From the NCBI GenBank assembly GCA_965223755.1, contig CBDCXF010000002.1, positions 733,780 through 797,779 on the forward strand: DNA of 64,000 nucleotides, in the 5' to 3' direction. Source of the stretch: Candidatus Multivoradales bacterium. Lineage in GTDB: Bacteria; Acidobacteriota; Thermoanaerobaculia; Multivoradales; JAHEKO01. A program made the position numbers and the translations under genes. Below are positions 390 through 800 of this stretch, piece after piece. The number at the start of each line of letters is the position of its first letter. The first letter of the stretch is position 1. The notes under the pieces were generated by a model. That model made no database searches and was not told the origin of the DNA. It worked only from the letters and a program-made list of their open reading frames with translations.

Positions 390-800
390 TCTTCGCTAAC
401 GCTCATCAGGCGTCACGCGAGGGCTTCTGCCAAGCAATTTGTGCAATGCACAAATTGGGAACGAATCCCTAGGACAAAAAACTCGTTGGCCCCACCACTT
501 CCCGCTTCGCTAGAAATGCGGAGGGGGAGGGATTCTGCCAAGCTACGCGCATCCGCGCGTCGGAAACGAATCCCTAGGACAAAAAACTCGTTGGCCCCAC
601 CACTTCCCGCTTCGCTTAGAAATGCAAAGAGGCAGGGATTCTGCCAAGCAATTTGTGCAATGCACAAATTGGGAACGAATCCCTGGAACAAAAAACTCGT
701 TGGCCCCACCACTTCCCGCTTCGCTTAGAAATGCAAAGAGGCAGGGATTCTGCCAAGCAATTTGTGCAATGCACAAACGGGGAACGAATCTCTTTCTCGA
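390..800. repeat. Tandem array (~3.5 copies, period 106-109 bp) of a structured repeat immediately 3' of tRNA-Ser(GCU)
   Basis: Unit starts at 421, 529, 635, 744. Each unit is GGGATTCTGCCAAGC-[inner hairpin]-TTGGGAACGAATCCC plus a ~58-bp linker (ggacaaaaaactcgttggccccaccacttcccgcttcgcttagaaatgcaaagaggca). Copy 2 replaces inner hairpin ttgtgcaATgcacaa with acgcgcATCCgcgcgt, keeping the stem. Confidence 0.8.

Follow-up and report, generated by a model that had tools for sequence, protein, structure and literature searches.

The region directly downstream of the tRNA-Ser(GCU) gene in the 64,000-nucleotide stretch of DNA analyzed here (the window) carries a tandem array whose units are built from the 3′-end of this tRNA. 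Segments of the units match the cognate tRNA in direct (S′) and in reverse-complement (A) orientation, such arrays are restricted to tRNA 3′-flanks, they are present at orthologous loci of related genomes with varying copy number, their hairpins contain a covarying inner stem, and the layout of the S and A segments recurs in the tyrT–tyrV repeats of E. coli. In our estimation there is about an even chance that the array is a tyrT-like tRNA-trailer repeat, which is co-transcribed with the tRNA, acts in the formation or processing of the 3′-end and expands by unequal recombination. The first-pass annotation had already taken the array for a tRNA-3′-derived, tRNA-tied, structured and noncoding element, a description that held throughout; the second array, the antisense segment A, the spread to tRNA-Glu, tRNA-Gln and tRNA-Gly and the E. 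coli tyrT/RtT precedent were absent from it.

The tRNA-Ser(GCU) gene was located at 298–389 (ARAGORN; 55.5 bits with the Rfam tRNA model), on the + strand like all array features of the window given below. Its last 21 nt, beginning with C56 of the T loop (CGAATCCCTCCCTCTCCGCCA, 369–389), are the source sequence S of the repeats, and the native 3′-trailer, unit 0 of the unit alignment (TCTTCGCTAACGCTCATCAGGCGTCACGCGA, 390–420), is homologous to the spacers of the later units and to the tRNA-Ser trailers at the related loci L047 and L017. The array abutting the tRNA spans 420–793; Tandem Repeats Finder (TRF) called it at 420–790 with a period of 109 (units of ~107–109 bp), 3.4 copies and 86% matches, in agreement with the ~107-bp unit and 3.5 copies counted previously. 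It contains four rod hairpins of ~48 nt (GGGATTCTG-linker-inner stem-loop-linker-CGAATCCC), in which the outer clamp, GGGATTC/GAATCCC, is followed by short linkers and then by the inner stem-loop, and the extended hairpin assigned to each unit folds as drawn in all four copies. Hairpin 1 (421–469) has a degenerate 5′ clamp (GGGCTTC) and scored 64.5 bits with the covariance model at a predicted −19.2 kcal/mol, hairpin 2 (529–574; 51.8 bits, −21.7 kcal/mol) has an alternative inner stem, hairpin 3 (635–683; 66.8 bits) folds at −26.8 kcal/mol with a z of −5.3, and hairpin 4 (744–792; 58.7 bits, −16.5 kcal/mol) is decaying, with CGAATCTC and a shortened inner stem. The different but paired inner stem reported for copy 2 was confirmed, as ACGCGC-ATCC-GCGCGT is fully paired, compared with TTTGTGCA-AT-GCACAAA elsewhere.

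The order within the unit is S′, C-rich spacer, A, TG, inner stem-loop and the next S′. S′ consists of the 3′ clamp plus one base and is identical to the T-loop/T-stem 3′ strand of its own tRNA from C56 onward. By exact-match comparison, CGAATCCCT at 462–470 is a direct copy of tRNA positions 369–377, further copies lie at 567–575 and 676–684 and a degenerate one at 785–793, and the exact 9-mers stand at offsets of 73, 178, and 287 from the tRNA end. The 3′-end of the hairpin had been described as mimicking a T-arm; the likeness to the T loop and T stem stands, but an exact copy is more than a mimic. For the inner stem-loop, which had been placed where an anticodon or variable arm would be, no obvious similarity to either was seen on inspection by eye.

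The 5′ clamp and the bases preceding it are the reverse complement of the 3′-end of the adjacent tRNA. In unit 2 this antisense segment A (GCGGAGGGGGAGGGATTC, 518–535) matches the reverse complement of GAATCCCTCCCTCTCCGC at 17 of 18 positions; it spans the complement of the T loop through the discriminator base and includes the exact 11-mer GGGAGGGATTC. The A segments are G-rich, and the spacer (..CCCCACCACTTCCCGCTTCGCT..) is C-rich and G-poor: it lies at 471–517, recurs at 576–623 and 685–732 with C-rich 30-nt windows in every unit, and contains CGCTTCGCT, which is present three times, in the spacers of this array only. The C-rich spacer is homologous to the tRNA's own trailer, and since the units can be multiply aligned with the tRNA 3′-end and trailer segment, each unit is a duplicate of that segment, in which the acceptor/CCA part has been replaced and A has been kept. 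The direct copy of S measures 8–10 nt without CCA in the window and 8–21 nt in the other arrays. The longest inverted exact match of each downstream region is usually with its own tRNA (12 nt for tRNA-Ser(UGA), GGGGCGGGATTC; 14 for tRNA-Glu, CCCCAACGGGATTC; 16 for tRNA-Gln; 18 in L050 and L051; 10 for tRNA-Gly and E. coli tRNA-Tyr), the exception being window units 3 and 4, which fit a Gln-type end slightly better through a one-base change.

The only other tRNA gene of the window, tRNA-Ser(UGA) (47623–47712; ARAGORN and Rfam), is followed by a sister array at 47724–48133 (TRF period 169, 2.4 copies, 97%), in which two hairpin types alternate within each 169-bp unit. Its five hairpins (47742–47789, 47822–47867, 47911–47958, 47991–48036, and 48080–48127) were recognized by the covariance model with 48–56 bits and by folding. 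Segment A of the first unit (GCAGTTGGCGCTATGGGGCGGGATTC, 47723–47748) is the reverse complement of the tRNA-Ser(UGA) 3′-end together with CCA and 5 nt of the trailer (47693–47717), with 22 predicted base pairs. The motif ATTCTG-N20-45-CGAATC occurs seven times in the window against 0.29 expected, solely behind the two tRNA genes, and the hairpin covariance model, built from 19 hairpins, found exactly 9 copies in the 64 kb (46–67 bits), the next match having an E value of ~0.3. The open reading frames across the array had been regarded as spurious, with which the unit lengths of 109 and 169 agree, as neither is a multiple of three.

A two-hairpin pattern was searched in 185,579 species, each represented by a single genome, a scan for which ~10 chance matches were estimated. 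It returned 14 loci, of which 12 proved to be ordinary coding sequence lacking both hairpins and tRNAs and two were true, both in metagenome-assembled genomes (MAGs) labeled Candidatus Multivoradales (Acidobacteriota, Thermoanaerobaculia): L017, where tRNA-Ser(GGA) with ~4 units is followed by tRNA-Ser(CGA) with ~4 units, and L018, with at least four units behind tRNA-Glu(UUC). The same pattern gave one true match among 16 in JGI metagenomes, L025, where four 108-bp units follow tRNA-Gly(CCC) and S is the full 21-nt tRNA end including CCA. All three true matches lie directly 3′ of tRNA genes, and the other 27 are chance matches that have neither hairpins nor tRNAs. Further loci (L047, L049–L051, and L040) were fetched through neighboring proteins, independently of the motif; several of the other loci were found by the motif and thus carry an ascertainment bias. 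In this set, tRNA-Ser(GCU) is followed by 91 bp × 2.9 at L049 (from the L017 genome), by 160 bp × 2.8 at L050 (from a third genome) and by 169 bp × 2.6 at L051 (from the L018 genome), where S is 20 nt long and A covers the whole T arm in reverse complement. L051 also has tRNA-Gln(CUG) with a single 16-nt cognate A, L040 (L017 genome) has only one degenerate unit behind tRNA-Ser(UGA), and L047 (third genome) has two units each behind tRNA-Ser(GGA) and tRNA-Ser(CGA) as well as a third tRNA, truncated, to which a unit is fused.

Thus, arrays follow tRNA genes for Ser (four isoacceptors), Glu, Gln, and Gly in related Thermoanaerobaculia (Ca. Multivoradales) MAGs, and in the window as well as in all 13 related arrays or units the units lie 3′ of the tRNA gene on the same strand. 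The proposed check of other tRNA 3′-flanks and of relatives proved fruitful, and the tRNA linkage was confirmed: the covariance model found no copies away from tRNA 3′-flanks, all its matches in the ~260 kb examined being within 700 nt 3′ of a tRNA. Of the tRNAs seen, a single one had no module: tRNA-Pro(CGG) of a more distant relative, with the next gene beginning ~20 nt after it. The orthologous tRNA-Ser(GCU) locus carries an array in three other genomes (L049, L050, and L051), and the gene order in L049 and L050 is that of the window, that is, aldehyde dehydrogenase (Aldedh), tRNA-Ser(GCU), array, Wzy_C protein, and transketolase. A tadA–tRNA-Ser–tRNA-Ser–rpmH locus with arrays is present in two genomes (L017 and L047). 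Between the window and the related L017 genome, protein identity is 84% for DAHP synthase, 75% for transketolase, and 63% for YidC.

Some observations concern the surroundings of these loci. The double tRNA-Ser arrays (L017 4220–6745; L047 9265–11731) lie immediately upstream of rpmH-rnpA-yidD-yidC, and their position beside the RNase P protein gene is possibly coincidental. The truncated third tRNA-Ser of L047 (~8975–9060), of which only the 5′ half is left, is fused directly to a hairpin unit, suggesting that blocks made up of a tRNA and its array are duplicated as a whole and later lose parts by deletion. The short-read contig L048 begins (1–230) just upstream of rpmH, where relatives carry tRNA-Ser arrays; its end at the expected array position suggests that arrays probably break assemblies.

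Single-sequence folds of the array hairpins gave −16 to −27 kcal/mol (z of −2.3 to −5.3). In a model-fitted alignment of 19 copies, 8 of the 10 pairs of the inner helix had changed on both sides, and 87% of its cells were paired; with the partners slid by 1–3 columns this fell to 20–50%, and the observed covariation score was reached by no shuffle. The outer clamp showed no covariation in the same alignment, and its fourth pair was broken in 7 of 19 copies by uncompensated changes, thus it is conserved by copying from the tRNA rather than by structural selection. The compensatory change that had been taken for a sign of selection on structure was therefore borne out for the inner stem, but it does not extend to the outer one. 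The inner stem is maintained as a hairpin, be it in RNA or in single-stranded DNA, as judged from few independent events: the hairpins fold equally well on both strands and G·U is not enriched over A·C, so that nothing marks out RNA over single-stranded DNA. At L018, two half-stem variants were found in all four combinations, as expected from recombination, not selection. The inner stems are common to arrays at different tRNA loci, and arrays are more alike within a genome than between orthologous loci, indicating homogenization among loci whose tRNAs share their 3′-end.

Such behavior could also be that of nonfunctional, self-propagating DNA, an explanation we hold to be possible but rather unlikely. 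Template-switch correction of quasi-palindromes is an established kind of mutagenesis; here the T arm and a trailer hairpin would provide the quasi-palindromes, template switching during replication would lengthen the inverted repeats and correct them against the tRNA sequence, itself under selection, and thereby create A, slippage or unequal crossing-over between S copies would amplify the unit, and the inner palindromes would result from this mechanism, not from selection. The absence of strand bias in pairing or stability, the outer clamp without covariation, the recombinant stem haplotypes in L018, the decayed terminal copies (window hairpin 4 and L017 units), and the differences in copy number and period between relatives are all consistent with this scenario, as is the inclusion in A of the complement of CCA and of trailer bases, which fits a DNA palindrome centered in the trailer. 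It is harder to reconcile with the persistence of arrays at all three orthologous tRNA loci compared, across genomes with YidC only ~64% identical, and with an inner stem that keeps pairing by compensatory changes over that divergence. Moreover, whatever the tRNA type, and in E. coli too, S and A have their boundaries within the T loop, a position more in keeping with the edge of a structural domain than with random slippage.

The closest known parallel is the tyrT–tyrV locus of E. coli, where a 178-bp unit is present 3.14 times (the tyrV–rttR region was analyzed). At the end of each E. coli unit stand the last 19 nt of tRNA-Tyr with the CCA (S), and the unit also contains an A segment, GGGGAAGGAT, which is the reverse complement of ATCCTTCCCC. 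It is within these 178-bp repeats that tyrT transcripts end, by Rho-dependent termination. To our knowledge, no function has been accepted for the tyrT repeats and RtT RNA, described between 1978 and 1991, and they have been regarded as an isolated case. A passage in PMC3318445, citing Bosl and Kersten 1991, derives rttR from one repeat unit of the tyrT operon, and in our analysis rttR ends exactly at the repeated CCA. The window array has the same unit placement and the same direct copy starting in the T loop (CGAATCCCT three times). In both systems tandem units lie directly 3′ of a tRNA gene in its orientation, the unit has its start within the T loop and a direct copy of the tRNA 3′-end forms part of it, each unit contains a reverse-complement copy of the T-stem/acceptor 3′ strand, and C-rich and G-rich stretches alternate. 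Since A and S are present together in both, they can close a structured domain.

The two systems also differ in several respects. They have no sequence or covariance-model similarity: RtT (rttR, RF00391) gave no match in the window at the gathering threshold or at E ≤ 10, and the hairpin model misses the E. coli locus. Unlike the E. coli repeats, the present ones belong to Acidobacteriota, have no tpr-like ORF and follow Ser, Glu, Gln, and Gly tRNAs at several loci per genome, compared with one locus in E. coli. Their units are mostly shorter (91–169 bp) and form a simple rod hairpin, and in the window S is cut to 8–10 nt without CCA while A is longer. A similar layout in a distant phylum, at several tRNAs and at orthologous loci, suggests either a general mechanism that creates such modules or a general use in ending or processing tRNA transcripts. 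A single E. coli curiosity thereby becomes a recurring and comparable phenomenon, and an old question becomes testable through comparative data.

As to transcription, a −10 box, TACAAT, lies at 280–285 upstream of tRNA-Ser(GCU) and is invariant in four genomes. No terminator-like site was detected on the + strand of window 1–1200, thus none between tRNA-Ser(GCU) and the array, which makes read-through into the array the default expectation. The hairpins themselves do not qualify as intrinsic terminators in the window, where they are followed by TAGGACAAAAAAC instead of the U tract expected behind a GC-rich hairpin. A terminator at ~48347–48378 was considered as the end of the transcript carrying the sister array and rejected, because it belongs to a trp leader with three Trp codons. 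This trp-type attenuator (48211–48378, + strand) precedes a DAHP synthase–trpEGDCBA operon; it comprises a promoter-like TTGCAA-16-TAGTAT, a leader peptide, MTILALLRTTSGAWWWPN, with three tandem Trp codons at 48249–48305, and a terminator, GCCCGCCGATCCGGCGGGC+TTTTTGTTTGTT, and it scored below threshold with Rfam Trp_leader (31.4 bits, E 2.7e-4).

The repeated module has its start within the tRNA gene, at C56 in the T loop, and A closes a rod-like hairpin with the next S′. From the sequence we infer that the tRNA promoter may also drive transcription of the array, as a long 3′ external spacer, for which the lack of an intrinsic terminator between the tRNA and the array speaks. Rho-terminated tRNA operons are documented, as are trailers whose removal by exonucleases can be blocked by structure (PMC2190699). 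In the present arrays, hairpins and C-rich spacers could serve to form the 3′-end of the tRNA transcript by Rho-type termination or pausing, act as barriers to 3′ exonucleases or provide for endonucleolytic processing, and C-rich windows recur once per unit as they do in the E. coli repeats. Structured by-product RNAs might be released in this way, as is RtT RNA in E. coli. Copy number would shift by unequal recombination between units, arrays on tRNAs with a common 3′-end would be homogenized within a genome, and the match of A to the tRNA may be maintained either through selection for pairing or through correction templated by the hairpin. Co-transcription and a role in processing and termination are thus proposed from sequence features. 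The 3′ETS-leuZ sponge of E. coli is reportedly a tRNA 3′ external transcribed spacer with a function of its own; the proposed origin as a tRNA trailer released in processing is common to both cases, but spacers of that type are single, unrepeated, and not built from tRNA sequence.

In the predicted minimum-energy folds of tRNA plus first trailer for tRNA-Ser(UGA) and for L050, the tRNA 3′ strand pairs with A (22–24 bp) instead of forming the cloverleaf, whereas the cloverleaf is kept in the predicted fold of tRNA-Ser(GCU) with its trailer, where the first A is degenerate. An S:A-paired precursor would be harmful unless folding were under kinetic control. The folds raise the prospect of a regulatory RNA, acting in trans or in cis, in which A would bind the tRNA 3′ strand as an antisense unzipper or sponge, or the hairpins would resemble minihelices and serve to decoy enzymes or toxins that recognize the acceptor/T-arm helix. 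Both tRNA-derived small RNAs and decoys, as proposed in the first-pass annotation, are possible roles. In favor of a regulatory RNA, the complementarity of A to the cognate 3′-end extends over up to 18–24 nt, CCA and trailer among them, A is predicted to prevail over the cloverleaf, its acceptor-complement part is conserved even where the unit's own S′ has no partner for it, and three tRNA-Ser isoacceptors have one 3′-end in common as the target. Nevertheless, we judge it improbable, as invasion of a folded, modified tRNA is kinetically hard and no conserved protein gene, toxin or nuclease, was linked to the arrays across the loci examined.

Equally doubtful in our view is a more elaborate version, a lineage-wide RNA device made of self-renewing trailer modules on many tRNA genes of the clade. 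Here A would take the single-stranded NCCA and the trailer as a toehold from which to open the acceptor/T-arm helix of its tRNA and hold a non-tRNA fold until a nuclease trims the trailer, the downstream S′ copies and the hairpins would reset or buffer this switch or divert tRNA-directed nucleases as minihelix decoys, and E. coli RtT would be a relic of this principle.

The first-pass annotation had also offered stacked att scars left by serial integrations at tRNA-Ser. Remnants of attL/attR at the T loop, or a mini mobile element targeting tRNA 3′-ends, would account for inner stems common to arrays at different tRNA loci and for a direct repeat that has its start in the T loop and, like att cores, reaches the CCA or its vicinity in L025, L051, and E. 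coli (19–21 nt). Att repeats of tyrosine integrases are likewise direct repeats of the tRNA 3′ part from the T loop, placed downstream of an intact tRNA, but the present arrays differ from them in having ~100-bp units and an inverted copy, in lacking an integrase or island-sized cargo and in being kept at orthologous loci. Neither an integrase nor a transposase adjoins any of the 13 arrays, in line with the earlier remark that the array neighborhood is free of integrase, transposase, and CRISPR features; the genes flanking the arrays are housekeeping genes at every locus, those downstream of the window arrays being a convergent Wzy_C protein gene and the trp-operon leader. Blastn of the array revealed no similarity to phages or plasmids. 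Furthermore, duplication of att sites would not be expected to yield the inverted copy A, and the acceptor part of S has been replaced in most units while A was kept. An island in place of the array in sister genomes, which would have pointed to simple scars, was not encountered: three of them carry the array at the orthologous locus. Together with a scan of viral contigs that stayed at chance level, these data make integration scars very unlikely.

That viral scan, made with a single hairpin, gave nine matches, none with a tRNA, and they were rejected; they look like chance because all but L004 have no inner stem. The exception, an IMG/VR contig, has the same clamps and an inner stem at 3793–3841 (29 bits with the hairpin model) with no tRNA nearby, and having been chosen by its clamp pattern, it is probably a chance match too. 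An IS-type transposase gene (DDE_Tnp_1) lies at 174–1241 of L049, ~6 kb from the tRNA-Ser(GCU) array, and not at the other loci.

Other classes of repeats were considered as well. A CRISPR array was dismissed because the spacers are themselves repeated (TRF matches of 86–97% over whole units) and there is no cas gene in the flanks examined, and a type III toxin–antitoxin locus because ToxI-like repeats are 34–45 nt long and lie upstream of a toxN-type gene, whereas the units here are 107–169 bp. REP/BIME elements are also short hairpin-forming intergenic repeats, sometimes in tandem, but they are dispersed genome-wide and not matched to tRNAs; a dispersed REP/MITE-type repeat was rejected since the covariance model has no copies away from tRNA flanks in the window or at the other loci. 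The Infernal/Rfam scan, one of the checks proposed beforehand, yielded no family besides tRNAs, only these and noise being obtained at gathering and permissive thresholds. K-turns, integron attC sites, and IS200/IS605-type end motifs were not seen by eye.

Behind the tRNA-Ser(GCU) array lies an element, GTCATCCCGAGCGTAGTCGAGGGATCTGGGGG (815–850), which resembles blocks following the arrays in L047 and L049; whether it is a member of the repeat system is uncertain. The conserved block, GTCATCC(C/T)GAGCG...GGATCTGGG, stands behind several arrays (window 815–850; L047 8500–8545 and 8890–8935; L049 ~7800–7830). Neither this block nor the REP-like motif TCATCCYGAGCG found after the array has a second occurrence within the window. 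In practical terms, the arrays spawn spurious ORFs and could mislead island-finding tools that seek tRNA 3′ fragments. The window also contains tandem repeats unrelated to the tRNA arrays, at 5365–5446, 7781–7819, 17353–17409, and 38431–38477; these are CCCTACTGTAGATAAC × 5.1, AGATAACCAGCACCC × 2.6 flanking a sulfatase gene, GGCACTTTCTGACTG × 3.8, and a perfect TAGTGGT × 6.7.
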